Sequence record: OZ035809.1
Strand: one strand, 5' to 3'
Length of the DNA: 40,209 nt
Origin: Kayfunavirus T147P5
The notes under the pieces are model-generated. The model searched no databases. It was given only the letters and a program-made list of their open reading frames with translations, and was not told the DNA's origin. Position 1 is the stretch's first letter, and each line of letters begins with the position of its first letter. The position numbers and the translations under genes are program-made. This document shows positions 1,178 to 25,195 of the stretch, piece after piece.

Positions 1178-2936
1178 GAAAACACCTGCTGAAAGACAGG
1201 CAGAAATGACCCAAAGGATGAGGGATGACTTCGTGTTCTTCATATTCGTTCTATGGAAAGCTCTGAGCCTTCCTGTTCCAACACGCTGCCAGATAGATAT
1301 GTGTAAGAAGCTGGCGGCTGGAGATAATCGACGCTTCATCCTTCAAGCATTCCGTGGTATTGGAAAGTCGTTCCTGACCTGTGGTTTCGTGGTCTGGAAG
1401 TTATGGAATAACCCAGACTTGAAGTTCATGATTGTGTCGGCCTCAAAGGAACGAGCCGATGCGAACTCCATCTTCATCAAGCGTATCATCGACCTCATGC
1501 CTCAGCTTCAGGAACTCAAACCTAAACAGGGGCAGCGAGATGCGGTTATCAGCTTCGACGTGGGACCTGCCAAGCCAGACCACTCACCTTCGGTTAAGTC
1601 CGTTGGTATCACTGGTCAGTTGACTGGTAGTCGTGCTGACATCCTGATTGCCGATGACGTTGAGGTTCCGAACAACTCAGCGACTCAGGCTGCACGAGAC
1701 CGTCTATCAGAGCTTGTGAAAGAGTTCGACGCTATCCTGAAGCCGGGAGGTACGATCATCTATCTGGGTACTCCTCAGAACGAGATGACCCTGTACCGTG
1801 AGCTGGAAGGTCGTGGGTACACCACTACTATCTGGCCCGCTCGTTATCCACGCGACAGGAAGGACTGGCAGTCTTACGGCGACCGTCTGGCTCCTATGCT
1901 TCAGGCAGAGCTGGAAGAGGACCCTGAGTCCTTCTACTGGCGTCCGACTGATGAAGTACGCTTCGATGATACGGACCTGAAGGAACGTGAGCTGTCCTAC
2001 GGTAAAGCTGGATTCGCTCTACAGTTCATGCTTAACCCGAACCTGAGTGATGCCGAGAAGTACCCTCTGAAGCTCCGTGACCTTATCGTAGCCGACTTGG
2101 ACCCAGCGTCCAGCCCAATGGTCTACCAATGGTTGCCAAACCCTCAGAACAAGCGTGAGGACGTTCCTAACGTGGGACTCATGGGTGACTCGTACCACAC
2201 GTATCAGACTGTAGGTTCTGCCTTCAGTTCGTACACCCAGAAGATTCTGGTCATAGACCCTAGTGGTCGTGGTAAGGATGAAACTGGCTATGCGGTACTA
2301 TACCAGCTCAACGGCTATATCTTCGCTATGGAAGTTGGCGGTATGCGTGGTGGCTATGAAGACTCTACGCTGGAAGCCTTGGCTAAGATTGGTCGTAAGT
2401 GGAAGGTCAACGAGTACGTCATTGAGGGTAACTTCGGTGATGGTATGTACCTTGAGTTATTCAAGCCTGTAGCTGCCCGTATCCATCCTGCTGCTGTAAC
2501 TGAAGTGAAGAGTAAGGGTCAGAAAGAACTCCGCATCTGTGACGTTCTGGAGCCTATCATGGGGTCTCACCGACTTATCGTTAACGCTGCTGCTATAGTC
2601 CAAGACTACCAGTCTGCCTCTGATAAGGATGGTGTTCGTAACCCTATCTACTCTCTCTTCTACCAGATGACACGTATCTCTCGTGAACGTGGAGCCTTGG
2701 CACACGATGACCGACTTGATGCGCTGGCTATCGGTGTACAGTTCTTCGTTGAGTCTATGGCTAAGGATGCCAACAAAGGCGAACGTGAAGTCACTGAGGA
2801 GTGGCTGGAGGAACAGATGGAGAACCCACGGAAAGGCTTCGAGTCCATCCACACGGAGTTCTGGGACAATGGGGTCCGGGTAACTCACGATACGGACGAC
2901 GAGCTTGGACTAGGGTCCTACGTTACGTTCCACTAG
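1167..2936 (+). CDS. terminase large subunit (T7 gp19-like)
   Basis: 589 aa; long collinear similarity to T7 gp19 ([77 protein letters not shown]). Confidence 0.95.
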
Positions 2937-3030
2937 CTGAATGAATAACTATAGGCGAAAACTGAATTAATACGCGGTTAGTAACCTATAGTTACTACCA
3001 GTCTAACCTACTGTTTTACAAGGAGTTTGG

Positions 3031-3053
3031 ACTTAACTATCACTATAGGGAAG
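3031..3053 (+). promoter_or_regulatory. phage RNAP promoter (phiOR-like)
   Basis: ACTTAACTATCACTATAGGGAAG; matches the 11-copy consensus; +1 G about 3048; between gene 19 and gene 19.5 as in T7. Confidence 0.8.
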
Positions 3054-3232
3054 ACCCCCGGTTACTTATAGTATTACTGTAGTGAATATACATATGCAGA
3101 CTTTATGCAAGACCTTAGGAGGCAGACTCCGAGTTCTTACCTAAGGCTTGCACCGATGGAAGGAGGGTGATATTAATCATAATCCCTCCAATACAGATAG
3201 TAAAGACCATAGATACAGGAGGTATGTAGCAT

Positions 3233-3391
3233 ATGGCAAAGACCAAAGCTGTACTTAAAGCTCTGGCGACCAATCGAGCTACATACAGGTTTCTTGCTGC
3301 TGTTCTACTTGCTGCTGGCGTTACTGCTGGAAGTCAGTGGGTCGGGTGGGTCGAGACTCTCGTATGTTCTCTGGTCTCTCAGTGTAATTAA
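3233..3391 (+). CDS. gp19.5-like small protein
   Basis: Not in ORF track (52 aa); RBS AGGAGG 3216-3221; MAKTKAVLKALATNRATYRFLAAVLLAAG...LVCSLVSQCN resembles T7 gp19.5 (..RVTYRFLVVL...VVCSIL..); same position after gene 19. Confidence 0.6.
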   Translation: MAKTKAVLKALATNRATYRFLAAVLLAAGVTAGSQWVGWVETLVCSLVSQCN

Positions 3392-3460
3392 CGCAATCAT
3401 GGTAACGATTCATGAGCGGAAGACCTAAGGTCAGTACGTGGATAAAGACTCACTCTACTG

Positions 3461-3599
3461 ACCTTAGCTACTGTAGTCAAGGACTTTAGGTAACACCATT
3501 CAGGCTCTCACCTCTGGTCTACCTACTGATTGGTTCACTGGTCGTCATCCGATGGTCTTAGACCTACGGTCCTTGACCTACAGTAGCTGGTTCCTAAGG
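3461..3599. repeat. imperfect inverted repeat (about 24-bp arms, about 85-bp spacer) just left of the presumed terminal repeat
   Basis: Left arm ACCTTAGCTACTGTAGTCAAGGAC (3461-3484) vs right arm GTCCTTGACCTACAGTAGCTGGT (3569-3591), reverse-complementary with one indel and one mismatch. Confidence 0.5.
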
Positions 3600-3637
3600 A
3601 GGGACGATGAGTTTTGGACCAAAAGTTTGAGACCACA

Positions 3638-3826
3638 TCTCACAGTTCAAGAACCTCAAGTCTCCCCATAGGCCATCTTTCAGTCCAGACCAAAGGCCCT
3701 ACCCCAGTCTATCATAAGGTTAGACCGATGGTCAAGACTTCAGGTCAACGATAGGTTGTGGCTATGGCTTAGGGAAGGACGATAGGTAGGGACTATGGGT
3801 CTGTCTTTGAGTCTCTATCTGTATCA
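3638..3826. repeat. probable direct terminal repeat (single collapsed copy) containing the physical genome ends
   Basis: Begins TCTCACAGTTCAAGAACCTCAAGTCTCCCCATAGG, closely resembling the first bases of the T7 genome (recalled); 246 bp downstream of gene 19.5; end near CTATCTGTATCAG is approximate. Confidence 0.45.
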
Positions 3827-3910
3827 GACCATAAGTCACTAACCTACAGTCTCACTAACCTACAGTCTCAACCATAAGACACCAACACCTACAGTCATAG
3901 ACCTACAGTT
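3827..3910. repeat. short direct-repeat array (ACCTACAGT units)
   Basis: ACCTACAGT at 3842, 3858, 3887, 3901 with tandem 16-bp CTCACTAACCTACAGT x2; analogous to the CCTAAAG-type arrays after the T7 terminal repeat. Confidence 0.5.
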
Positions 3911-4020
3911 ACTAGACACAAAGCTATAGACTTAAGGTCTAAGACATGTTAGTCAAAGACTATATCCTCTTACACCATGGGGCCGACGATAGCTTAATCA
4001 ATATTATTTCAAATTACCTA

Positions 4021-4049
4021 TTGACTATAGGTCCAGACTATGGCCTAAT
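4021..4049 (+). promoter_or_regulatory. candidate host sigma70 early promoter (T7 A1-like)
   Basis: -35 TTGACT (4021-4026), 17-bp spacer, -10 CCTAAT/CTAATA (4044-4050); resembles T7 A1 architecture (TTGACT-17-GATACT). Confidence 0.45.
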
Positions 4050-4161
4050 AGCTTACGTCAACACGACACGGCAACAACCGGATAGTGAAGACGCCGGGTC
4101 ATCCCGGTTAAGTAGACAGCCTGATAAGTCATACGAAAAACAGGCAGATGACAGAAAGTAG

Positions 4162-4191
4162 TTGACAAGCAGTAACGATAAGATGTAAGCT
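4162..4191 (+). promoter_or_regulatory. A2/A3-like promoter remnant (TTGACA ... TAAGAT) with non-canonical spacing
   Basis: TTGACA 4162-4167 and TAAGAT 4179-4184 separated by only 11 bp; alternative -10 TAAGCT at 18 bp is weak. Confidence 0.25.
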
Positions 4192-4306
4192 GTACCACAT
4201 CGAAACAACGGTGACGACCGACACTGAAACGGTCTACCTGAAGTCCTCTGACTGAAGGGAATGCTCTTTAACAATCTGGATAAACTCTTAATGTGCGCCG
4301 ATAGCG

Positions 4307-4378
4307 ACTAACTACAGGGTCTTTGAGTCTACATCTGAAGGCCCTGGCTGATAGTCACTAACTTAACGGATGGACACT
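4307..4378 (+). promoter_or_regulatory. conserved early intergenic element E1 (probable RNA processing/regulatory site)
   Basis: GACTAACTACAGGG...GGCCCTGGCTGATAGTCACTAAC; diverged copy of E2/E3; immediately precedes first early ORF. Confidence 0.4.
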
Positions 4379-4624
4379 ATGAAACACTTAAGCACAATCA
4401 CTAATCACAATGAAGTATTCGTGAACACTAAAGGTTATGCGTGGATTCAGCTTAAAGAGATGAGAGGAGCGCGTCACCGTGTGGTAGTTCGCAAGGTATC
4501 AAGCAAGCCGTTCAGCAACTACAGCGTAGATATTGTGCGTATAGACAACGAGACTTACCTGATAGACTCGCAGATAACCGTGAGTCCTACAGCGGGCATC
4601 TCAGCTCCTTATTTCGCTAACTGA
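4370..4624 (+). CDS. hypothetical early protein
   Basis: 84-aa ORF; alternative start ATG 4379 fits the RBS spacing seen for E2/E3; first gene after the host-promoter region. Confidence 0.6.
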   Translation: MDTMKHLSTITNHNEVFVNTKGYAWIQLKEMRGARHRVVVRKVSSKPFSNYSVDIVRIDNETYLIDSQITVSPTAGISAPYFAN

Positions 4625-4627
4625 GAG

Positions 4628-4697
4628 TGATTAACTACAGGTCGTTAGAATCATAGCGGCCTGACTGATAGTCACTAGCAACCTAAGAGGATTCATT
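4628..4697 (+). promoter_or_regulatory. conserved early intergenic element E2
   Basis: TGATTAACTACAGGTCGTTAGAATCATAGCGGCCTGACTGATAGTCACTAGC; about 90 percent identical to E3; fills the intergenic gap; RBS AAGAGGA follows. Confidence 0.4.
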
Positions 4698-4976
4698 ATG
4701 AGACTGAACAAAGCTACAGCAGAAGCCTTCCGCAAGGAGCTTGAATCAAGATTATTGTGTGGAGTGGCGGAAGGAGCCGCTCGATATAAAGAGAATGGTC
4801 TAACGTTCAAGCGCTTTATGTGGGATTGCTATCACGGAGTGGGCCATAAAAAGTCGCAGGAAATAATCACCAGCAACAATGCGGAAGTGCAAGTGATAGG
4901 AGGATACATGGCTAACGTGAAGGATTCACACATAGAGACAATGCTTAAGAATGCACTTAAAGATGTAGCCTACTAG
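4698..4976 (+). CDS. hypothetical early protein
   Basis: 92-aa ORF with RBS AAGAGGA; no recognisable motif. Confidence 0.65.
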   Translation: MRLNKATAEAFRKELESRLLCGVAEGAARYKENGLTFKRFMWDCYHGVGHKKSQEIITSNNAEVQVIGGYMANVKDSHIETMLKNALKDVAY

Positions 4977-5046
4977 TGATTAACTACAGGTCGTTAGACT
5001 GATAGCGGCCTGACTGATAGTCACTAACAACTGAGAGGATATAACT
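4977..5046 (+). promoter_or_regulatory. conserved early intergenic element E3
   Basis: TGATTAACTACAGGTCGTTAGACTGATAGCGGCCTGACTGATAGTCACTAACAAC; contains short hairpin TGACT-GAT-AGTCA; precedes ocr-like gene. Confidence 0.4.
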
Positions 5047-5550
5047 ATGGAACGTAACGCTAACGCATACTATGAGCTGCTGGCTGCAACCGTTGAGGCA
5101 TTTATCGAGCGTATTCAGTACGACCACCTGACTCAAGATGATGACTACAGCGATGCGCTGCATGAGGTCGTAGACGGTCAGGTTCCACACTATTACCACG
5201 AGATTTTTACGGTGATGGCTGCTGATGGTATAGACCACGAGTTCGAAGACTCTGGGCTGATGCCTGAAACCAAGGACGTAACGCGTATACTACAAGCTCG
5301 CATCTATGAGGCGCTTTATAACGATGTGTCTAATAGCTTGGATGTAGTCTGGTTTGAGGCTGAAGAGGCAGACGAAGAGGATGAATATTGGGTAGTTGAC
5401 GCTAAAACAGGCGCAATAATTGTGCAAGCTGTAGCTCTTGAGGTCGCTACTGCATGTGCCAATGTCAACTATGCAACAGGTCGCCACCTGAAGGTGGAAG
5501 ACATCAATGATAACGTAGTGTTCGACCCTGCGGCTGAGGACTGCGAGTGA
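5047..5550 (+). CDS. ocr: Ocr-like DNA-mimic anti-restriction protein (T7 gp0.3-like) with about 54-aa C-terminal extension
   Basis: [43 protein letters not shown] nearly identical to T7 Ocr core; acidic stretch [10 protein letters not shown]; 167 aa versus 117 aa in T7. Confidence 0.8.
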
Positions 5551-5705
5551 TGGTAACTTATGGTATCTGCCAGCACCACGTCGCAAACGCCCGGCTTATG
5601 GTCAAGACCGGGCAATTAAACCACGATGCGACTATGCGTCACCTGAAAGCGGTCTATGAGGGCCGCAAGCGCATACACGACAGTTTGCACGCTGAGGATA
5701 AGTAA
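5550..5705 (+). CDS. small early protein at the position of T7 gene 0.4
   Basis: Not in ORF track (51 aa); ATG overlaps ocr stop (TGATG); ..TMRHLKAVYEGRKRI.. loosely resembles T7 gp0.4 as recalled. Confidence 0.45.
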   Translation: MVTYGICQHHVANARLMVKTGQLNHDATMRHLKAVYEGRKRIHDSLHAEDK

Positions 5706-5818
5706 CGTGTATCATAGCCTGACCATAACGCTGACAGGCGGGTACTGAGTGATAGACGAGAGGTCATCGACTGATAGGTGGCCTCAAAGATTACCACTTG
5801 AATTAATAGGAGTTAACT

Positions 5819-5908
5819 ATGAGTGTGGGATATTGGGTCTGCCTAGCGCCAGTTATCTGGATGATAGGCTATGGGTTATACGACTGTATTAAACGGAAAT
5901 CACTATGA
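5819..5908 (+). CDS. small hydrophobic peptide (29 aa)
   Basis: RBS AGGAG 5808-5812; MSVGYWVCLAPVIWMIGYGLYDCIKRKSL; stop overlaps next ATG. Confidence 0.3.
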   Translation: MSVGYWVCLAPVIWMIGYGLYDCIKRKSL

Positions 5909-6102
5909 GTCTTGCACTATTGATAGCCATAGGCTATGGACTTATCGCCTACGTGCTGATGAGAGACATCTACAAAGCGCGTAAAGTCTACAAATTCAAC
6001 TATGTACGTCTGGGCCGCTGGACTGTACGTCAACCTAACGGACGATTCATGCGCAACCTAGCGAACGTCTGGGATATAGCAACACTTGGGAGCAAACTGT
6101 AA
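5905..6102 (+). CDS. small membrane protein
   Basis: 65-aa ORF with N-terminal TM segment LALLIAIGYGLIAYVLM; translationally coupled to the flanking ORFs. Confidence 0.5.
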   Translation: MSLALLIAIGYGLIAYVLMRDIYKARKVYKFNYVRLGRWTVRQPNGRFMRNLANVWDIATLGSKL

Positions 6103-6428
6103 TGAACAAGTCATACGGGATTAATCTGGTACACTCTATGGACGCAGACATGCAAATGTTAAGCCTACTTGCTACCGGGTATCGTCACGGAACGTCAAGT
6201 CACACCGCACGTCAACAGCAGGAGCGGGACCGGGTACTGCAAGCAAGACTCCGGGCTGAGGGCCATAAGTCCGAGCTGATGTGTCTGGCGTATGGTGGAC
6301 GACCAATCACTGACGATGGTAAACTTTTAGTCTCAGGCTGGAAGGCGATAGACCAACGGTCAACCATCAAGCACACGACTCATGGTGACTTCAGTCATCT
6401 TCACGCTAACCCACTGATATGCAAGTGA
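6102..6428 (+). CDS. hypothetical early protein
   Basis: 108-aa ORF occupying the slot where T7 has gene 0.7; no kinase motifs. Confidence 0.6.
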   Translation: MNKSYGINLVHSMDADMQMLSLLATGYRHGTSSHTARQQQERDRVLQARLRAEGHKSELMCLAYGGRPITDDGKLLVSGWKAIDQRSTIKHTTHGDFSHLHANPLICK

Positions 6429-6433
6429 TTCTG

Positions 6434-6456
6434 ACTTAACTATCACTATAGGACTC
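6434..6456 (+). promoter_or_regulatory. phage RNAP promoter immediately upstream of the RNAP gene
   Basis: ACTTAACTATCACTATAGGACTC; full consensus match; leader 6457-6525 contains direct repeats (AAGTGAAAGAC x2, GACTTTAAGT x2). Confidence 0.75.
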
Positions 6457-6525
6457 AAGGTCTAAGACTCCAAGTGAAAGACCAAAGAGACTTTAAGTGA
6501 AAGACTAATAACAAGGACTTTAAGT

Positions 6526-9207
6526 ATGAGCGTCATCTCTATTGACAAACACGACTTCTCTGATGTGTCGAACGCCATTGAGCCGTTTAACCTGCTGGCT
6601 GACCACTACGGGCAAGACCTTGCAGTCAAACAGCTTCAGCTTGAGCATGAGGCATACACTGAAGGCGAGCGACGTTTCATCAAGAACCTTGAGCGGCAGA
6701 CTGAGCGAGGGGAACTGGCAGACAATCAGGTCGCCAAGCCTTTGATGCAGACTCTGGTTCCTAAGATTGCGCAAGCCGTCAAGGAGTGGCATGAAGGTCC
6801 AGACGGGAAGCTGTCAACCTCTCGTCCGAGCGTAGCGTTCACCATGTTAAGCACTGAAGAGAAGGCCGTCAAGGACCGCTCTCTTCGCATCTCCTGCGAG
6901 TCTGCTGCGGTTATCATACTGAAGGTCATCCTCTCCAAGCTGGTCAAGCCTGAAGGTATACCGATTACACCGATGGCCTCCGCGATAGGTCGCACACTTG
7001 AGGATGAAATCCGATTCGGTCGCATTCGTGACAAGGAGAAGGAGCACTTCAAGAAGGCAATAGCTGATAACCTGAACAAGAGAGCCGGGGCATCATACAA
7101 GAAAGCCTACATGCAAGCGGTCGAGACATCCATGCTGGAGCAAGGCCAACTAGAAGATGCGTGGGGAACTTGGAGTCCGACCGAGGCTGTCCACGTTGGA
7201 ATCAAGATGCTGGAGATTGTCATCCAGTCAACACAACTGGTCGAGCTTAAGCGTTATGGTGCTGGCAATGCAGCGGCTGACGTTGAGATGGTCCACCTGT
7301 CAGACTTCTGGGTCAAGAAGATGGCACAACGCGGCTTCAGCCTTGCGGGCATCGCTCCAGTCTACCAACCTTGCGTAGTTCCACCTAAGCCGTGGACTGG
7401 TGTCGTAGGCGGTGGGTACTGGGCCAAAGGTCGCAGACCATTACCACTGATTCGCTTAGGGTCTAAGTCTGCGGTGGCACGTTACGAAGACGTGTATATG
7501 CCTGAAGTCTATGACGCTGTTAACATCATCCAGAATACACCTTGGAAAGTGAACAAGAAGGTTCTGGACGTGGTGAACATGGTCGAGAAGTTGAACAACA
7601 CGCCTATTGATGACATCCCTCAGATGGAGCCACTGAAGCCTGAAGAATATGCGGGTGAGACTGAAGAGGAACTCAAGGCGTGGAAGAAAGCGGCTGCTGG
7701 TATCTATCGCCGCGAGAAGGCCAGACAGTCACGCAGGTTGTCGCTGAGCTTTATCGTTAACCAAGCGAACAAGTTCTCTCAGTTCAAGGCCATCTGGTTC
7801 CCGTATAACATGGACTGGCGCGGTCGCGTCTACGCTGTGCCGATGTTCAACCCTCAGGGTAACGACATGCAAAAGGGTCTCCTGACTCTGGCAGTCGGTA
7901 AGCCTATTGGTGCTGATGGTTTCAAATGGCTGAAGGTCCACGGTGCAAACTGTGCGGGTGTCGATAAAGTCACCTTCGAGGAGCGCATCAAGTGGGTGGA
8001 AGATAACCACGACAACATCATGGCTACCGCTAAGGCACCGATGGACAGCATTGAGTGGTGGGGTAAGTTAGACTCTCCGTTCTGCTTCCTAGCGTTCTGC
8101 TTCGAGTATGCTGGCGTAATGCACCACGGTTTGTCTTACTCCTGCTCGCTGCCGATAGCTTTCGATGGGTCCTGCTCTGGGATTCAGCACTTCAGCGCGA
8201 TGCTTCGTGATCACATCGGTGGACATGCAGTAAACCTGACGCCTTCCGGTAAGGTCCAAGACATCTACCGCATCGTGTCTGACCGCATTGAGGAGGAGCT
8301 TAAAGTCCTGCTGGTTAATGGCACGGACAACGAGGGGGTCACTAACGAGGATAAGAAAACTGGCGAGATTACCGAACGTATCAAGCTGGGGACACGAGAG
8401 CTGGCCCGCCAGTGGCTGACTTACGGTATGTCACGCAAGGTTACTAAGCGCTCAGTCATGACTCTGGCCTATGGGTCGAAAGAGTACGGCTTTGCAGACC
8501 AAGTTTACGAGGACATCGTGATGCCAGCGATTGACTCAGGGTCTGGCGCTATGTTCACTGAACCAAGCCAAGCGTCTCGCTTCATGGCTAAGATGATTTG
8601 GGAAGCTGTGAGTGTGACCGTAGTTGCTGCAGTTGACGCGATGAAGTGGCTTCAAGGTGCTGCCAAGCTGCTGGCGGCTGAAGTGAAGGACAAGAAGACT
8701 GGAGAAATCCTGAAGCCTTGCCTTCCGGTACACTGGGTCACACCTGATGGGTTCCCGGTCTGGCAGGAATACCGCAAGAAGGATACCACTCGTCTGAACC
8801 TGATGTTCTTAGGGTCATTCAACCTTCAGCCTACCGTCAACAAAGGCACGAAGAAGGAGTTGGATAAGCACAAGCAGGAGTCAGGAATTAGCCCGAACTT
8901 CGTCCACTCACAAGATGGTAGCCATCTCCGCAAGACTGTAGTCCACACTCACCGCAAGTATGGCGTGATGTCATTCGCAGTGATTCACGATAGCTTCGGG
9001 ACCATCCCGGCTGACGCTGAGTATCTGTTCCGGGGTGTCCGTGAGACGATGGTCGAGACCTACCGCGACAACGATGTGCTGCTTGACTTCTACGAGCAGT
9101 TTGAATACCAACTTCATGAGAGCCAGCGCGACAAGTTGCCTGAGCTTCCGAAGAAAGGTAAACTGAATATTGAGGACATTCTATCTTCAGACTTTGCATT
9201 CGCTTAA
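6526..9207 (+). CDS. DNA-directed RNA polymerase, single-subunit (T7 gp1-like)
   Basis: 893 aa; collinear with T7 RNAP (DFSD...PFN.LADHYG, FQPCVVPPKPWTG, WFPYNMDWRGRVYAV, FCFLAFCFEYAG, HDSFGT, C-terminal FAFA). Confidence 0.97.
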   Translation: MSVISIDKHDFSDVSNAIEPFNLLADHYGQDLAVKQLQLEHEAYTEGERRFIKNLERQTERGELADNQVAKPLMQTLVPKIAQAVKEWHEGPDGKLSTSRPSVAFTMLSTEEKAVKDRSLRISCESAAVIILKVILSKLVKPEGIPITPMASAIGRTLEDEIRFGRIRDKEKEHFKKAIADNLNKRAGASYKKAYMQAVETSMLEQGQLEDAWGTWSPTEAVHVGIKMLEIVIQSTQLVELKRYGAGNAAADVEMVHLSDFWVKKMAQRGFSLAGIAPVYQPCVVPPKPWTGVVGGGYWAKGRRPLPLIRLGSKSAVARYEDVYMPEVYDAVNIIQNTPWKVNKKVLDVVNMVEKLNNTPIDDIPQMEPLKPEEYAGETEEELKAWKKAAAGIYRREKARQSRRLSLSFIVNQANKFSQFKAIWFPYNMDWRGRVYAVPMFNPQGNDMQKGLLTLAVGKPIGADGFKWLKVHGANCAGVDKVTFEERIKWVEDNHDNIMATAKAPMDSIEWWGKLDSPFCFLAFCFEYAGVMHHGLSYSCSLPIAFDGSCSGIQHFSAMLRDHIGGHAVNLTPSGKVQDIYRIVSDRIEEELKVLLVNGTDNEGVTNEDKKTGEITERIKLGTRELARQWLTYGMSRKVTKRSVMTLAYGSKEYGFADQVYEDIVMPAIDSGSGAMFTEPSQASRFMAKMIWEAVSVTVVAAVDAMKWLQGAAKLLAAEVKDKKTGEILKPCLPVHWVTPDGFPVWQEYRKKDTTRLNLMFLGSFNLQPTVNKGTKKELDKHKQESGISPNFVHSQDGSHLRKTVVHTHRKYGVMSFAVIHDSFGTIPADAEYLFRGVRETMVETYRDNDVLLDFYEQFEYQLHESQRDKLPELPKKGKLNIEDILSSDFAFA

Positions 9208-9223
9208 TAACAGGAGAGACAAC

Positions 9224-9424
9224 ATGCAATTCGAACACCGTGTATCAAACGTACCTGGTGGTAACAAGGTCGTAACAGTAACAATGGCGGCTGGCAAGGG
9301 TCTATTCAAAGTTACTATGGTCCCGACTGGAACGGCTAAGGCCAAAGGTATCAGCCAGAAGGAGCTGATTCAGGTAATCCAGTGGTCGCACGAGAAGGCC
9401 CTACGGGAAGAGGCAACCAAATGA
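9224..9424 (+). CDS. hypothetical protein
   Basis: RBS CAGGAGAG 9211-9218, ATG 9224; 66 aa; the ORF-track start at 9170 overlaps the RNAP 3' end and lacks RBS. Confidence 0.5.
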   Translation: MQFEHRVSNVPGGNKVVTVTMAAGKGLFKVTMVPTGTAKAKGISQKELIQVIQWSHEKALREEATK

Positions 9425-9500
9425 CAGACCTACAGTTACTGGCCATGTGGCTGGGAGCACTAGCAGTATTCACTTTAATCCAACGCAGAAGAGGTTAACC

Positions 9501-9523
9501 CTAAACTATCACTATAGGATTAG
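9501..9523 (+). promoter_or_regulatory. phage RNAP promoter (phi1.1-like)
   Basis: CTAAACTATCACTATAGGATTAG; +1 about 9518. Confidence 0.8.
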
Positions 9524-9565
9524 ACTAAAGGTCATGACTCAAAGTCGTGGCCTTCATGATTAACC
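9519..9565 (+). promoter_or_regulatory. RNase III-site-like hairpin (analogous position to T7 R1.1)
   Basis: Same inner stem AAGGUCA(9528-9534)/UGGCCUU(9548-9554) as the elements at 296 and 16436. Confidence 0.45.
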
Positions 9566-9595
9566 CTAAATAAACACTACTGGAGATTTAACCGT

Positions 9596-9775
9596 ATGTA
9601 TCAGAACACTATCAACTTCGAGCGCATCCGTGAACGTCAGCAGACTGAAGGTTACATCCCGAAGGGCCGCAAGCTGAACAAGACCAAGCGTGGCGGTGGT
9701 ATCAAAGGCGCTTTCCGAAACGCTGAAGGTAAAGACTCTCTGGTCAACCAAGAGAAATACTTCGTAGGAGCATAA
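9596..9775 (+). CDS. gp1.1-like small basic protein
   Basis: Not in ORF track (59 aa); RBS GGAG 9582-9585; ..KGRKLNKTKRGGG.. resembles T7 gp1.1 (KGRKLNKTKR). Confidence 0.55.
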   Translation: MYQNTINFERIRERQQTEGYIPKGRKLNKTKRGGGIKGAFRNAEGKDSLVNQEKYFVGA

Positions 9776-9779
9776 CTCT

Positions 9780-10043
9780 ATGGGCCGACTTTATAGTGGC
9801 AACCTCAACGCTTTCAGAGCAGCGTGTAACAGGCTTTATCAGTTAGACTTCGCTGTTATATCTCAGGAGTTTCAAGACCATACGTCACGCCAAGAGTGCA
9901 TGAAACTCAGGGTGGAGGACCGAGCTGGTAACATCTTCGCGCTTGAGACCTTCGCACACTACGATGAAGACGTGCTGTATAATACTGCAACAGACTACCT
10001 CAACGGTCTCGCTGACCAACTCGACACATGGAGCAAAGCATAA
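9780..10043 (+). CDS. gp1.2-like protein (dGTPase inhibitor family)
   Basis: 87 aa; MGRLYSGNLNAF.AA.N.L.QLD.AVI...RL.EDR.GN...T.HDEDVL.N..TD.LN closely resembles T7 gp1.2. Confidence 0.8.
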   Translation: MGRLYSGNLNAFRAACNRLYQLDFAVISQEFQDHTSRQECMKLRVEDRAGNIFALETFAHYDEDVLYNTATDYLNGLADQLDTWSKA

Positions 10044-11125
10044 TGACAACTATCAAAACTAACCCGCACCGCGCTGTAGATTACTCTGAGTCTGGCATTA
10101 AAAAGGCACTGGAAGCAGCCGGGTCTCTGGAAGCTGAAGTGAAGTACGATGGTGTCCGGTTGAACCTTCCGGTGCTGCGAGAAGGTGAGACATACTGGTT
10201 AAGCCGTGAGTCTAAACCGCTGCCAGCACTGGAGTGGATGAACTCTGAGTTAGGGAATGCGTGGACTCAAGCTGACTGGCGATGGTTCCTGCGTCAAGCT
10301 GGATACGAAGGCGTAGGCCTGATGATTGACGGAGAGGTAATGGTCAAAGGTGTTGACTTCAACACATCATCGGGTCTCATCCGAACGAAGTGGCTGAAGC
10401 CTAGCAACGAGGAGTTCGCTGAATGCTATCCGGGACGTGGCAAGAAGGTCCCGTTCTGGGTAGCCAGGTCACGACTCAAGGTTGTGGTCTACGGCGTCGT
10501 AGATATGACAACCATTGCTGACCCGAAAGCCGAAGGTCCTATCCATAGCGTCACACGCCTGAAGGCCGAAGCTATCGTCCCTCTCCTCCAGAAATACTTC
10601 CCGGAAATCTACTGGGTTCTGTCTGAGTCACACACGGTCTATGACCTTGAGTCGCTCAACTCCCTGTACGAACAGAAGCGTCTGGAAGGACATGAGGGTC
10701 TGGTAGTCAAGGACCCACTAGGTAAGTACAAGCGTGGCAAGAAGTCTGGCATGTGGAAAATGAAGCCTGAGGAGACCATCGACGGGACCGTGTGTGGCCT
10801 CGTGTGGGGGACTCCTGGTAAGGCTAACGAAGGTAAGGTCATCGGCTTTGAGGTTCTACTGGAGGATGGCATGGTGGTCAACGCCTGTGGTCTGACTGAA
10901 GAACAGAAGGACGAGTTTACGGCTAAGGTCAAGGAGGACACGCTTGCTGCGGTTGGCATCTTTGAGCCGTACGGCATTGGTGGTAACGAACCTTGCTTCA
11001 ATAACCCATACGAAGGCTGGCAGTGTGAAGTCCTCTTCATGGAGAGGTTCCCTGATGGCTCCCTTCGTCACCCCAGCTTCAAGTGCTGGCGTGGAACCGA
11101 AGACAACCCAACGGTGAAGTCATGA
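10043..11125 (+). CDS. ATP-dependent DNA ligase (T7 gp1.3-like)
   Basis: Start chosen at ATG 10043 (TAATG overlap with gp1.2) to match T7 N-terminus (MTTIKTNP..); adenylation motif EVKYDGVR; EGHEGLVVKDP; KSGMWKMKPE; SLRHPSF. Confidence 0.9.
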   Translation: MTTIKTNPHRAVDYSESGIKKALEAAGSLEAEVKYDGVRLNLPVLREGETYWLSRESKPLPALEWMNSELGNAWTQADWRWFLRQAGYEGVGLMIDGEVMVKGVDFNTSSGLIRTKWLKPSNEEFAECYPGRGKKVPFWVARSRLKVVVYGVVDMTTIADPKAEGPIHSVTRLKAEAIVPLLQKYFPEIYWVLSESHTVYDLESLNSLYEQKRLEGHEGLVVKDPLGKYKRGKKSGMWKMKPEETIDGTVCGLVWGTPGKANEGKVIGFEVLLEDGMVVNACGLTEEQKDEFTAKVKEDTLAAVGIFEPYGIGGNEPCFNNPYEGWQCEVLFMERFPDGSLRHPSFKCWRGTEDNPTVKS

Positions 11126-11301
11126 GTACACAACTTTATATCAACATAGCAAGTGGTCAACTCTACGCTGTGGTAAATGGCGAGCTGTGGTATCGTAAAC
11201 TCAAGAAGTGGGCCAAGTCCTACTACGATGAAGAGACAATATCAACCATGAGTCATCGCTACCGTAAGGCTGCTAAGGTGAACAACTTTAAGATGCGTTA
11301 A
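11122..11301 (+). CDS. hypothetical small protein (gene 1.4/1.5 position)
   Basis: ATG 11122 overlaps ligase stop (ATGA); 59 aa. Confidence 0.5.
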   Translation: MSTQLYINIASGQLYAVVNGELWYRKLKKWAKSYYDEETISTMSHRYRKAAKVNNFKMR

Positions 11302-11307
11302 CGTCAA

Positions 11308-11339
11308 CCCAGTGGTCTTAGGACTGCTGGGTTTCTTTG
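11308..11339 (+). terminator. intrinsic terminator candidate (analogous to T7 early terminator TE after gene 1.3)
   Basis: Stem CCCAGUGGUC (11308-11317)/GACUGCUGGG (11322-11331) with two G-U pairs, loop UUAG, followed by UUUCUUUG. Confidence 0.6.
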
Positions 11340-11360
11340 CGTCTGGGCCACCAGCTAGAC

Positions 11361-11383
11361 CCTAAGCTATCACTATAGGACAA
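11361..11383 (+). promoter_or_regulatory. phage RNAP promoter
   Basis: CCTAAGCTATCACTATAGGACAA; +1 about 11378. Confidence 0.75.
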
Positions 11384-11409
11384 CCCTAACCGACCAAAGG
11401 AGAAACCTT

Positions 11410-11664
11410 ATGTCTAAAAACTTAATGTTCAACCGATTTACTCGAAGCTTCCACCTGTCGCATAGCCCATTCAGCTTCCATAAAGCTAATCAACCATTAC
11501 CCCGCTTTGGTAAGACAGTGGCTCTGTCTCCTACAGTTCATGCGCTAGTCACCCGCAAGTCTATGCTGAATGCTATGGATAAAGAACAAGTTGATGTGCC
11601 TGTGGTCATTACAAAATGGCCTCGCATTAAGCTGGCACTTCTGGTAATTAAGGAGGCGCTCTGA
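11410..11664 (+). CDS. hypothetical protein (gene 1.6 position)
   Basis: 84-aa ORF downstream of promoter; RBS AAGGAG 11397-11402. Confidence 0.55.
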   Translation: MSKNLMFNRFTRSFHLSHSPFSFHKANQPLPRFGKTVALSPTVHALVTRKSMLNAMDKEQVDVPVVITKWPRIKLALLVIKEAL

Positions 11665-11996
11665 TGACATACTGTGATAGCACCACATACTGTGAAGCAT
11701 GTAATGGTGACGACCGCTTCCCGCACGTTGGTAAACTTGTAGGTAACAAACTACAAGAAATTGATGACGTCCGCAAGCCGTCCCACTATCAGGTCTTTGA
11801 TAGCGTGGAATCCATTGAGATTATCGCACGGTCAATGACTGTGAGTGAGTTCCGTGGGTTCTGCATGGGTAACGTCCTGAAGTATCGACTCCGGGCTGGT
11901 AAGAAGTCCGAACTGGCTACTATGGAGAAGGACCTGAACAAAGCATCCTTCTATCAGAAGCTGTTCGACTTGCATAAAGGTAAGTGCTATGCTTAA
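11664..11996 (+). CDS. gp1.7-like protein (short form)
   Basis: 110 aa; KPSHYQVFDSVE...GFCMGNVLKYRLRAG resembles a conserved block of T7 gp1.7 as recalled; shorter than T7 gp1.7. Confidence 0.45.
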   Translation: MTYCDSTTYCEACNGDDRFPHVGKLVGNKLQEIDDVRKPSHYQVFDSVESIEIIARSMTVSEFRGFCMGNVLKYRLRAGKKSELATMEKDLNKASFYQKLFDLHKGKCYA

Positions 11997-12075
11997 TGAT
12001 ATTGTGTATTACTGTGTAGTATGCGCCGGAGTTGGAGCACTAATCATTTTAATATATTGGGCCATAGAGGTGTAA
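11989..12075 (+). CDS. small hydrophobic peptide (28 aa)
   Basis: ATG 11989 overlaps preceding stop (ATGCTTAA); MLNDIVYYCVVCAGVGALIILIYWAIEV; stop TAA 12073-12075 directly before next ATG. Confidence 0.25.
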   Translation: MLNDIVYYCVVCAGVGALIILIYWAIEV

Positions 12076-12076
12076 T

Positions 12077-12175
12077 ATGGAAAAGCCGAGTGAGTGGTGC
12101 GAGCATAAATTTGAGGAGACAGGTAACGTCGATTACCTTCAGCTCTACAACTTATGGAAGGAGCGTGGTCTATGA
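12077..12175 (+). CDS. small protein (32 aa)
   Basis: [32 protein letters not shown]; stop overlaps gp2 ATG (ATGA). Confidence 0.3.
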
Positions 12176-12330
12176 CTGACGTAGAGAAGAAATACATCGT
12201 GGAGCTTGAGGGTCGCGTTCAGTCCTTCGAGGTTCCGATGTATGCAAGGTCTCTTGAAGAGGCTACCCTGAAGTCCCAAGAGTATGAGGACGCTGGGTTT
12301 GTGGTCGGACGGATTCGTCCTGAGCCCTAA
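12172..12330 (+). CDS. gp2-like inhibitor of host RNA polymerase
   Basis: Not in ORF track (52 aa); [14 protein letters not shown]......[10 protein letters not shown] matches T7 gp2 core (SFEVPIYAETLDEA...AGFEVTRVRP). Confidence 0.7.
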
Positions 12331-12348
12331 ACTATCACTGTAGGACAG
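12326..12348 (+). promoter_or_regulatory. phage RNAP promoter (variant, phi2.5-like)
   Basis: CCTAAACTATCACTGTAGGACAG; one substitution at -3; overlaps gp2 stop. Confidence 0.6.
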
Positions 12349-12387
12349 ACGTCCAGTTCGTAACTTTAAATTAGGAGATTTACACCA

Positions 12388-13086
12388 ATGGCTAAAGAGC
12401 AACTGAAGACTTTCACCACTCCGGTAGCTGGTATCGTTGAGCCTTACGCATGGCTGAACAAAGCAGACACCAAGTTTAATGAACGTGGTGAGCATAAGGT
12501 TAACCTGACATTCGACCTGAGCAACCCGAAGGTCCGTAAGATGATTGATGTCTTACAGAAGATTCACGACGATGCGTATGCGAAAGCACTCGCAGACCAC
12601 GAGAAGAACCCACCTCAGGTTCAGCGTGGCAAGAAGCCTATTGAACCACGAGAGGGCGACATGCCGTGGATTGAGAATGGTGACGGTACTGTTACCATGA
12701 AGTTTAAATGCTTCGCGTCTTACCTGAAGGATGGTAAGTCAGAGCCTATCGTATTACGGTTCTACGACACCGATGCTAAGTTAATCCGTGACGTCCCGAA
12801 TATTGGCGCTGGCTCAAAACTGAAGGTCAAGTTTAAAGTCCTGCCGTTCAAGTGGAACGCTGCGACTGGTGCAAGCGTTAAGCTACAGCTTGAGTCCTGC
12901 CTTCTGGTAGAACTGAAGGAGTGGAAAGGTGATGGTACTGGTGGCGATGGCGGCTGGGGTGATGATGAAGACCTCGGTACTGGCTACAAAGCATCAACCG
13001 ATGGTGACTTCGGGTCTGATGACTTCGGTGACGATGGTTACGAAGGTGGTGACGACTCCAACTCTGGTGGCGATTACGACTTCTAA
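12388..13086 (+). CDS. single-stranded DNA-binding protein (T7 gp2.5-like)
   Basis: 232 aa; Gly/Asp-rich acidic C-terminus ending GGDYDF as in gp2.5; RBS TTAGGAG. Confidence 0.9.
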   Translation: MAKEQLKTFTTPVAGIVEPYAWLNKADTKFNERGEHKVNLTFDLSNPKVRKMIDVLQKIHDDAYAKALADHEKNPPQVQRGKKPIEPREGDMPWIENGDGTVTMKFKCFASYLKDGKSEPIVLRFYDTDAKLIRDVPNIGAGSKLKVKFKVLPFKWNAATGASVKLQLESCLLVELKEWKGDGTGGDGGWGDDEDLGTGYKASTDGDFGSDDFGDDGYEGGDDSNSGGDYDF

Positions 13087-13538: not shown

Positions 13539-13762
13539 TGACTCAGGAAGTTAAGGTCGTTCGTCAGCGTCTGACCATTGATAAAATCCCGGTAGGCTAT
13601 GCGTTTATCGTCCACGGTAAGCCGGGTGAAGTGTACGTGAAGATTAGTAACTCTCACGTCTTCAACCATAAGTTACTCCAGATGCACACCACGGATGCTA
13701 ACCGCTTCCAACGTCATCTGAACCTCGTAGCTGTAGAGCTGGTGGTGTATGATGGTGAGTAA
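13535..13762 (+). CDS. hypothetical protein
   Basis: 75-aa ORF; RBS AAGGAG; overlaps flanking genes by a few nt; no T7 counterpart between gene 3 and 3.5. Confidence 0.5.
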   Translation: MMTQEVKVVRQRLTIDKIPVGYAFIVHGKPGEVYVKISNSHVFNHKLLQMHTTDANRFQRHLNLVAVELVVYDGE

Positions 13763-14210
13763 GGTGCAATTCAACCCACGGTCACGGACTGACGCTATCT
13801 TCGTTCACTGTTCGGCTACCAAGCCAGAGATGGACATCGGGGTAGAGACCATCCGTATGTGGCACAAGCAGCAAGGCTGGCTGGACGTAGGCTACCACTT
13901 TATCATCAAGCGCGATGGTACTGTGGAAGAGGGTCGCCCTGTCAATGTCGTAGGGTCACACGTTAAGGACTGGAACTCACGGTCTGTAGGAGTCTGCCTT
14001 GTAGGCGGAATTGACGCTAAGGGCAAGTTTGAAGCTAACTTCACTCAGGCCCAGATGAACTCCCTGCGCAACAAGCTGGCTGACCTGAAGGCCCTGTATC
14101 CTCAGGCAGAAATCAAAGCACACCATGACGTAGCACCAAAGGCGTGTCCAAGTTTCGACTTACAACGCTGGCTGTCTACCAATGAGCTGGTCACTTCCGA
14201 CCACGGTTAA
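13749..14210 (+). CDS. lysozyme / N-acetylmuramoyl-L-alanine amidase (T7 gp3.5-like)
   Basis: 153 aa; TDAIFVHCSATKP, WLDVGYHFIIKRDGTVEEGR, VCLVGGIDAKGKF.ANFT.AQM.SL, HHDVAPKACPSFDL match T7 lysozyme. Confidence 0.92.
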   Translation: MMVSKVQFNPRSRTDAIFVHCSATKPEMDIGVETIRMWHKQQGWLDVGYHFIIKRDGTVEEGRPVNVVGSHVKDWNSRSVGVCLVGGIDAKGKFEANFTQAQMNSLRNKLADLKALYPQAEIKAHHDVAPKACPSFDLQRWLSTNELVTSDHG

Positions 14211-14234: not shown

Positions 14235-14450
14235 ATGATTAAACTTATCGAATTTCTTGGTCGTCTGGTGGTGCGTGGCTATCGTCGTGCTGCGGTACTG
14301 GAACGAAAGGTAGAAAAGAAGACTGCCGATGGTGCGGCTGATGCTGCTGCTATGGCTGACAAGCTGACCATCGCGTCACTGGAAGCTGGCATGAAGGCAC
14401 GTCAAGCTGACACCAAAGCTAACCAGTTGGCTAAGTTCTTCAAAGCCTAA
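14235..14450 (+). CDS. hypothetical protein
   Basis: 71-aa ORF with RBS AAGGAG; Ala/Lys-rich. Confidence 0.55.
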   Translation: MIKLIEFLGRLVVRGYRRAAVLERKVEKKTADGAADAAAMADKLTIASLEAGMKARQADTKANQLAKFFKA

Positions 14451-14468
14451 ACTATCACCTTAGGGATG
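14446..14468 (+). promoter_or_regulatory. phage RNAP promoter (degenerate variant)
   Basis: CCTAAACTATCACCTTAGGGATG; two substitutions in the -4 to -2 region; upstream of primase-helicase. Confidence 0.5.
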
Positions 14469-14515: not shown

Positions 14516-16219
<1,704 letters not shown>

Positions 16220-25070: not shown

Positions 25071-25093
25071 ACTAAACTATCACTATAGGGAGA
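25071..25093 (+). promoter_or_regulatory. phage RNAP promoter (phi10-like, strongest consensus match)
   Basis: TAAACTATCACTATAGGGAGACC with GGGAGA initiating sequence; about 100-nt leader before capsid gene. Confidence 0.85.
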
Positions 25094-25195
25094 CCAAGAG
25101 ACAGACTCAAGGTTTCCCTATTACTTCAGTCCATACGGATTGGGCGTACAGTAAGTAATAAACTTTATCTTTCAATTGAATAGGAGAATTATCAT

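Follow-up and report, generated by a model that had tools for sequence, protein, structure and literature searches.

The stretch of DNA analyzed here (the window; 40,209 nucleotides) is a complete Kayfunavirus genome in circularly permuted form, as recognized by alignment with the ends of K1F and with the annotated features of EcoDS1. Over the 3.4 kb surrounding the promoter in front of gene 1, identity to genomes of Kayfunavirus (K1F-like, Studiervirinae) is 94-98%. Because the window is a circular permutation with its left end at 3638, transcription from the gene 1 promoter is predicted to start about 2.8 kb in from the physical left end. The following features define the setting:

3638-3824, plus strand: direct terminal repeat, the physical left genome end, with a concatemer-junction-like ATCTGTA at 3817
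4021-4199, plus strand: region of a pair of host sigma-70 early promoters, which correspond by homology to the first two that are annotated for the host enzyme in EcoDS1
6102-6428, plus strand: last small early ORF, gp0.38-like and without a Pfam family, with its stop codon 6 nt 5' of the promoter
6526-9207, plus strand: gene 1, single-subunit RNA polymerase of 893 amino acids (PF00940, 1.6e-106; PF14700)
11306-11339, plus strand: early terminator TE for host RNA polymerase, a hairpin and then a T-run, after the ligase gene
13749-14210, plus strand: gp3.5-type amidase (lysozyme; PF01510, 9.3e-17)

The two host-type early promoters were placed at about 4021 and 4161 by homology to the EcoDS1 annotation, and their activity is predicted. 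The assignment of the ORF at 6526-9207 to the phage RNA polymerase, made in a first-pass annotation of this DNA, is confirmed by its matches to both single-subunit polymerase families (PF00940 and PF14700). Three strong early-type hairpins are also found in the early region, at 4302-4362, 4626-4680 and 4974-5030 (plus strand; -23 to -24.5 kcal/mol). They have ...CTACAGG(G)TC...CTGATAGTCACTA... in common, and each is located just 5' of an early gene (compare R0.3, R0.5 and R1 of T7). A weak promoter-like sequence, CCTAAACTATCACCTTAGG, occurs farther to the right at 14446-14464 (plus strand), about 55 nt 5' of the primase/helicase ORF that starts at 14519; it has 3 mismatches in the 16-mer core.

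The gene 1 promoter sits in the 97-nt gap immediately 5' of the RNA polymerase gene, together with the elements of the leader:

6434-6456, plus strand: phage RNA polymerase promoter ACTTAACTATCACTATAGGACTC, -17 to +6, with its predicted +1 at G6451 and a class-II-like GGA start
6440-6503, plus strand: long imperfect hairpin, as predicted by folding, in which the promoter core makes up the 5' arm (dG -17.4, z -2.33)
6451-6525, plus strand: 5' leader (75 nt) of the predicted phage-initiated gene 1 mRNA; in all K1F-like loci, +1 and the ATG are 75-87 nt apart
6452-6460, plus strand: GACTCAAGG motif, common to the 5' arm of canonical RNase III-type hairpins
6466-6506, plus strand: the two best direct-repeat copies, GACTCCAAGTGAAAGACC and GACTTTAAGTGAAAGACT, with weaker copies starting at 6452 and 6516
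6513-6517, plus strand: Shine-Dalgarno-like AAGGA, 8 nt 5' of the ATG

The position of +1 was set by alignment with T7-type promoters, and 6434-6456 is then the conventional span from -17 to +6. A phage promoter had been proposed at exactly these coordinates, and both the sequence and the position hold. The element matches the 23-bp consensus of K1F-class phage RNA polymerase promoters, including the CACTATAGG core and the G at +1, and it belongs to a family with 10 members in the window. The family was defined by the 19-mer ACTTAACTATCACTATAGG (6434-6452), for which 10 matches with up to 3 mismatches were found, all on the plus strand, where shuffled sequences gave an expectation of 0.00. The CACTATAGG core by itself occurs 9 times in the window (0.27 expected). 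When scored with a leave-one-out PWM, the gene 1 promoter reaches 31.3 bits, within the range of 29.1-36.2 bits covered by the 10 family sites. The element is intergenic, is on the same strand as the genes, and has its predicted +1 75 nt 5' of the gene 1 ATG. No terminator-like site was found between 6451 and 6526, and no host promoter overlapping the element, of the kind represented by promoter C in T7, was detected in a sigma-70 consensus scan, which also misses the real early promoters.

The initial description of this site needs adjustment in two details. It had been called a full consensus match, which is slightly generous, as position -14 is T at this site and at two others where 7 of the 10 sites have A, and the initially transcribed sequence is GGACTC. 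The latter is non-optimal (the optimum being GGGAGA, as found at the capsid-gene promoter at 25071), and it puts the gene 1 promoter with the early/middle promoters at 9500, 11361 and 12326. The close placement upstream of the polymerase gene was also correctly recognized, but the figure of 70 nt was not: the leader is 75 nt long, and 92 nt separate the promoter's 5' edge from the ATG. Family membership and placement are direct observations, and initiation at G6451 is predicted from them. With these properties, the 23-bp element at 6434-6456 is very probably active as a promoter for the T7-type RNA polymerase that the phage itself encodes.

The leader that would be transcribed from G6451 contains four degenerate GACTYNAAG..AAGAC units, starting at 6452, 6466, 6489 and 6516, and the repeat pair 6465-6485/6488-6508 shows 86% identity. 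The direct repeats listed in the first-pass annotation are indeed present (AAGTGAAAGAC at 6472 and 6495, and GACTTTAAGT at 6489 and 6516); Tandem Repeats Finder reported nothing in 6300-6700, the repeats being too short and degenerate. The GACTCAAGG motif occurs in the window five times on the plus strand and three times on the minus strand, with 0.42 copies expected. Its recurrence downstream of other promoters and hairpins was also remarked upon at the outset. The intergenic copies are hairpin arms, with those at 300 and 16441 opening canonical hairpins, and the copy at 25104 comes after the promoter at 25071. Four copies, at 10473 (plus strand) and at 10653, 22776 and 24777 (minus strand), are inside coding regions, three of the four in antisense orientation, and GT comes next in all eight copies. 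The leader repeats are best read as part of a general leader and hairpin vocabulary of the phage.

The AAGGACTTTAAGTATG initiation region at the end of the leader is kept in Kayfunavirus types A-C. The leader also contains two GTG-started mini-ORFs on the plus strand, one of 8 codons (6474-6500) and one of 3 codons (6497-6508). The second of these is preceded by GAGACTTTAA, a mimic of the real AAGGACTTTAAGTATG initiation region, and a short GTG ORF is also present in Dev2-type leaders. These mini-ORFs may be a matter of chance in an A-rich leader.

The conservation of the promoter was analyzed in a set of 80 IMG/VR loci encoding RNA polymerase relatives plus several GenBank genomes, with the polymerase start located in each. 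All of the K1F-like loci with a definable promoter family (about 20 of the IMG/VR loci) have a family member 75-87 nt 5' of the polymerase ATG. A promoter before gene 1 was also present on direct inspection of K1F, Dev2, EcL30g, phi1_146013 and EcpYZU01, and the site is kept in 220 phage records. Furthermore, the sequence of the site varies with the specificity of the polymerase. In phages with CTAT specificity (the window, K1F and Dev2 types), the gene 1 site reads ...AACTATCACTATAGG, and the specificity loop of the window-type polymerase is TRLNLMFLGSFNLQPT, with N..N. In those with CCCT specificity (L017, L037 and EcpYZU01), the site reads ...AACCCTCACT(A/G)TAGG and the loop is TRLDLMFLGTFRLQPT, with the T3-like Asp and Arg. 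In CR8 (genus Caroctavirus), which has GGTA specificity, the site reads ...GGAAGGTACACTATAGG and the loop is TRIKLMFMG-VQYRPT, with a K11-like Lys. The region from -8 to -12 matches the loop of the cognate polymerase, and the two co-vary among relatives; like the conservation of the site, this is observed directly in the aligned loci. A site that has been kept at one position through two specificity switches is under selection as a promoter, and its co-variation with three promoter specificities argues strongly for a functional site.

One of these switches can be followed within a single genus. When the three loci L017, L037 and L108 (EcpYZU01) are compared with the window, the loop changes from N to D and from N to R (T7 residues 746-758) at about 88% polymerase identity, and in the same three loci all of the promoters go from CTAT to the T3-like CCCT at positions -11 to -8. 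Such a natural specificity switch could aid the design of orthogonal polymerases. The K1F polymerase and its predicted promoter function as an orthogonal expression pair (PMC12218169). Additional variation is found among the Dev2-type relatives, which carry CACTAAAGG (A at -2) at the gene 1 promoter only, a change that might weaken the site. In EcL30g, a window-type upstream promoter half is joined to a Dev2-type leader, and this mosaic suggests recombination within the element.

The natural reading of a conserved position, together with a sequence that tracks the promoter specificity of each phage, is an autoregulatory loop. In the proposed course of events, host RNA polymerase would act first, from the two sigma-70 promoters near the left end (about 4021 and 4161), and would transcribe the early operon, including gene 1, as far as TE (11306-11339). 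The newly made phage polymerase would then initiate at G6451, copying the gene that encodes it along with the genes downstream, so that gene 1 would become independent of the host enzyme and self-amplifying, a natural "autogene". At later times, the promoter would be damped by the gp3.5 lysozyme, as in T7. The arrangement in the window agrees with this scheme in that a cognate promoter lies 5' of the polymerase ORF with no terminator between the two, and a separate host route to the first polymerase molecules is provided by the EcoDS1-homologous promoters, with their predicted activity. An autoregulatory loop had been raised as a possibility in the first-pass annotation; the placement of the element, the lack of a terminator-like site before the ATG and the clade-wide conservation all support the suggestion, and in our reading of the locus the mechanism is most likely one in which gene 1 amplifies itself. 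Several properties of the loop can be estimated by analogy with T7. With a GGA start in place of GGGAGA, the promoter probably belongs to the weaker class II and has moderate strength; the lysozyme brake exerted by the gp3.5 amidase on class II promoters is presumed, and the size of the feedback would likewise be gauged from T7. Transcripts from G6451 would also feed genes 1.1-1.3 and beyond, and so the benefit to gene 1 is not isolated.

The T7-, T3- and K11/KP32-like phages have a different arrangement. No family promoter was found within 400 nt of gene 1 in any of about 50 such loci. A canonical R1-type hairpin precedes gene 1 there, and in most of these loci a promoter of the phiOL type is present at a distance of 2.1-3.4 kb on the 5' side of the gene. 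T7 itself has phiOL at nt 405, ahead of gene 1 and oriented like it. The first-pass statement that gene 1 of T7 is served by host promoters is only partly right. In the K1F clade, no phiOL-like site was found between the left end and gene 1, and none appears in the EcoDS1 annotation. SP6 was considered as a precedent for a promoter before the polymerase gene and rejected, because its first SP6-type site is at 6287, past the polymerase gene (3392-6016).

Only one other family member is found upstream of gene 1 in the window:

3031-3053, plus strand: phiOR-like promoter, which precedes the terminal repeat by about 600 nt and has a 19-mer identical to that of the gene 1 promoter

The location of this twin site fits that of phiOR. 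The gene 1 promoter does not have a terminal location of the phiOL or phiOR type, with its +1 about 2814 nt from the left end (3638). The two sites have the exact 19-mer and 24 of 40 upstream nt in common (18 of 40 for the next best pair), a hint of a duplicated promoter, and they likely arose by duplication. In the comparison of 3003-3053 with 6406-6456, the upstream stretch of the gene 1 copy overlaps the 3' end of the ORF at 6102-6428. The ATCTGTA that resembles a concatemer-junction pause site stands between the phiOR-like promoter and the early region. With no phiOL in the clade and a pause-like site after phiOR, the local promoter would be the main route by which the phage polymerase reaches gene 1.

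The same distribution could be explained in another way, namely that the promoter is functional but was selected mainly as the clade's substitute for phiOL, with feedback on gene 1 as a by-product. The site would then be the first entry point of the phage polymerase, serving transcription takeover, transcription-coupled DNA entry or replication priming. The reciprocal pattern, in which T7-, T3- and K11-like loci have only the distant promoter (2.1-3.4 kb) and K1F-like loci show the reverse, is consistent with such a substitution, and the sequence that the site has in common with its phiOR-like twin at 3031 points to duplication of an "end" promoter. However, the site is about 2.8 kb away from the left end and is fixed at 75-87 nt before gene 1 in all lineages, and this fixed placement directly before gene 1 argues that gene 1 is the gene served. 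Moreover, the polymerase is absent until gene 1 has entered the cell, which would leave no entry advantage for the first genome, and the site comes without a demonstrated origin-like AT-rich tract or primase-site cluster. We consider it rather unlikely that substitution for phiOL was the main basis of selection. Still less can be said for a chance sequence, or a decaying promoter copy, with no activity. The non-optimal initial sequence would fit such a copy, but an exact 19-mer match where none is expected by chance, and one kept in 220 phage records through two specificity switches, makes this explanation hardly credible.

A further alternative starts from the hairpin predicted over the promoter and leader: the selected feature might be an R1-like RNase III hairpin that parts gene 1 mRNA from early mRNA, with the promoter-like sequence as its 5' arm. 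R1 of T7 occupies the same place, and the leader begins with GACTCAAGGTC, a sequence that also forms the 5' arm in canonical RNase III-type hairpins of the phage (at about 293, 9519 and 16434). In the predicted two-tier fold at 6440-6503, UCACU..AGG.CUC would pair with GAG.CUU..AGUGA around a GGUCU/AGACC stem. The z of -2.33, obtained by folding the tight span 6436-6510, equals that of T7's proven R1; the leader folded from +1 or with wide flanks gave z values of -0.28 and -0.50, which are not significant. In Dev2-type phages, the promoter core and the leader hold two perfectly complementary 11-bp segments, TATCACTAAAG/CTTTAGTGATA. Other results speak against a selected hairpin. The site tracks three promoter specificities, which would be needless for a hairpin arm. 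A covariance model built from seven canonical hairpins, six of them window sites, recovers its six window training sites with 56-72 bits but found no match in the leader (6436-6510) even at E up to 10. No pair in the 6440-6503 hairpin has changed on both sides, and a recurrent T>C, at first read as a gain from G-U to G-C, was shown by the pair count to break a predicted A-U pair, so that reading was rejected. In addition, the CR8 and EcpYZU01 leaders fold differently. The negative evidence outweighs the positive, so we treat the hairpin as a possibility and not as a finding, and it is very unlikely that a hairpin was the feature selected. The roles of promoter and hairpin are nonetheless compatible and not mutually exclusive.

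Several further observations concern this hairpin and others in the region. The full 6440-6503 form is possible only in read-through transcripts, and the inner part (6454-6489) is also possible in phage-initiated RNA. If the promoter core acts as the 5' arm of a long hairpin, two isoforms of gene 1 mRNA would result: a read-through form with the whole hairpin, processed or structured, and a phage-initiated form with the upper stem only, so that early and middle messages of gene 1 could differ in stability or translation. This model of the RNA is doubtful; if it were true, the T>A change at -2 in Dev2-type phages and the perfect 11-bp complement could be seen as a compensatory adjustment of the switch. 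The 11-bp inverted repeat is located at 2386-2396 and 2440-2450 in L109 (Dev2), with the second copy 43 nt downstream, and likewise in L011-13, L019-20, L110 and L111. A convergent minus-strand promoter within this repeat was considered and rejected, as the core alone matches and -17 to -10 does not. The covariance model also detected one RNase III-type hairpin outside its training set, at 5748-5801 (plus strand; 32 bits, E 3e-5), which precedes the small ORFs at 6102-6428 and 5905-6102. A search of 2900-12500 against Rfam gave no family match at E up to 1.

Self-amplification of gene 1, the preferred reading, has implications beyond this phage. The textbook rule derived from T7, that the host polymerase makes the phage polymerase, would not be general even within the Studiervirinae. 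A whole clade (Kayfunavirus plus Caroctavirus) and, independently, Ghunavirus have the polymerase gene wired to its own promoter. A natural self-amplifying module of this kind would be relevant to phage engineering and to orthogonal expression systems based on K1F. The gain made here is a modest one, consisting of the distribution of the promoter at the level of clades, its persistence across two changes of specificity, and the lack of phiOL where the local promoter is present.

The element itself was already known. In EcoDS1 (NC_011042), a "promoter phi" is annotated before gene 1 at 2244-2266, and it is the identical 23-mer; the Citrobacter phages CR44b and CR8 have "predicted promoter" features at the same place. 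EcoDS1 and the window have the same 23-mer at the same position in the same map (terminal repeat, host promoters and TE), with no difference of substance. A promoter before gene 1 is thus ordinary for the K1F clade, already annotated and not new. The EcoDS1, CR44b and CR8 records present the site as annotation only, and neither a functional test nor a discussion of autoregulation at this site in Kayfunavirus was found in the literature reached, the scope of which did not include the K1F genome paper. Several Kayfunavirus papers give promoters and leave the one before gene 1 undiscussed. In a 2026 Kayfunavirus paper, eight 18-bp CTWAACTATCACTATAGG repeats were taken as promoters, and one of these is found where SPD_007 ends; judging from the locus tags, SPD_007 comes before the polymerase gene, SPD_008 (PMC13298934).

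Outside of the K1F clade, the closest parallels are in Ghunavirus. Both gh-1 (phi1; NC_004665, 939-961; L117) and PCW2 (L113, 7986-8002) have, like the window, a cognate promoter about 100 nt before the polymerase gene, and in gh-1 an RNase III-like site is annotated nearby. Unlike the window, gh-1 belongs to the genus Ghunavirus, has the promoter sequence AAAACCCTCACTGTGGC and encodes the polymerase as its first gene, and its R1 hairpin is upstream of phi1 and does not overlap it. The gh-1 phi1 promoter overlaps an annotated minor early terminator and a host promoter. A more distant case is the Pseudomonas phage LUZ100, in which a phage promoter (phi1) was mapped directly 5' of the polymerase gene and self-activation was proposed (PMC10134795). 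As in the window, a host promoter would bootstrap the system in LUZ100, followed by self-activation of the polymerase (PMC10134795). LUZ100 differs in being a remote T7-like phage that carries an integrase/MarR cassette and may be temperate, and its starts are mapped whereas those in the window are predicted.

T7 has a hairpin at the homologous intergenic position before gene 1, as is predicted for the window, but there the minor E. coli promoter C (3113) and the canonical R1 are found with no phage promoter within 400 nt, and in T7-like phages the phage polymerase has access to gene 1 through phiOL. The original T7 autogene construct was reportedly that of Dubendorff and Studier. In the engineered T7 autogene, gene 1 of T7 is placed under a T7 promoter (see PMC6395690 and PMC1500874). 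That construct and the window have the same basic design, a polymerase gene under its cognate promoter, with positive feedback in the one case and probable positive feedback in the other. The T7 autogene is synthetic and needs control by repressor and lysozyme in cells, whereas the arrangement in the window is natural and would operate as part of a lytic program.
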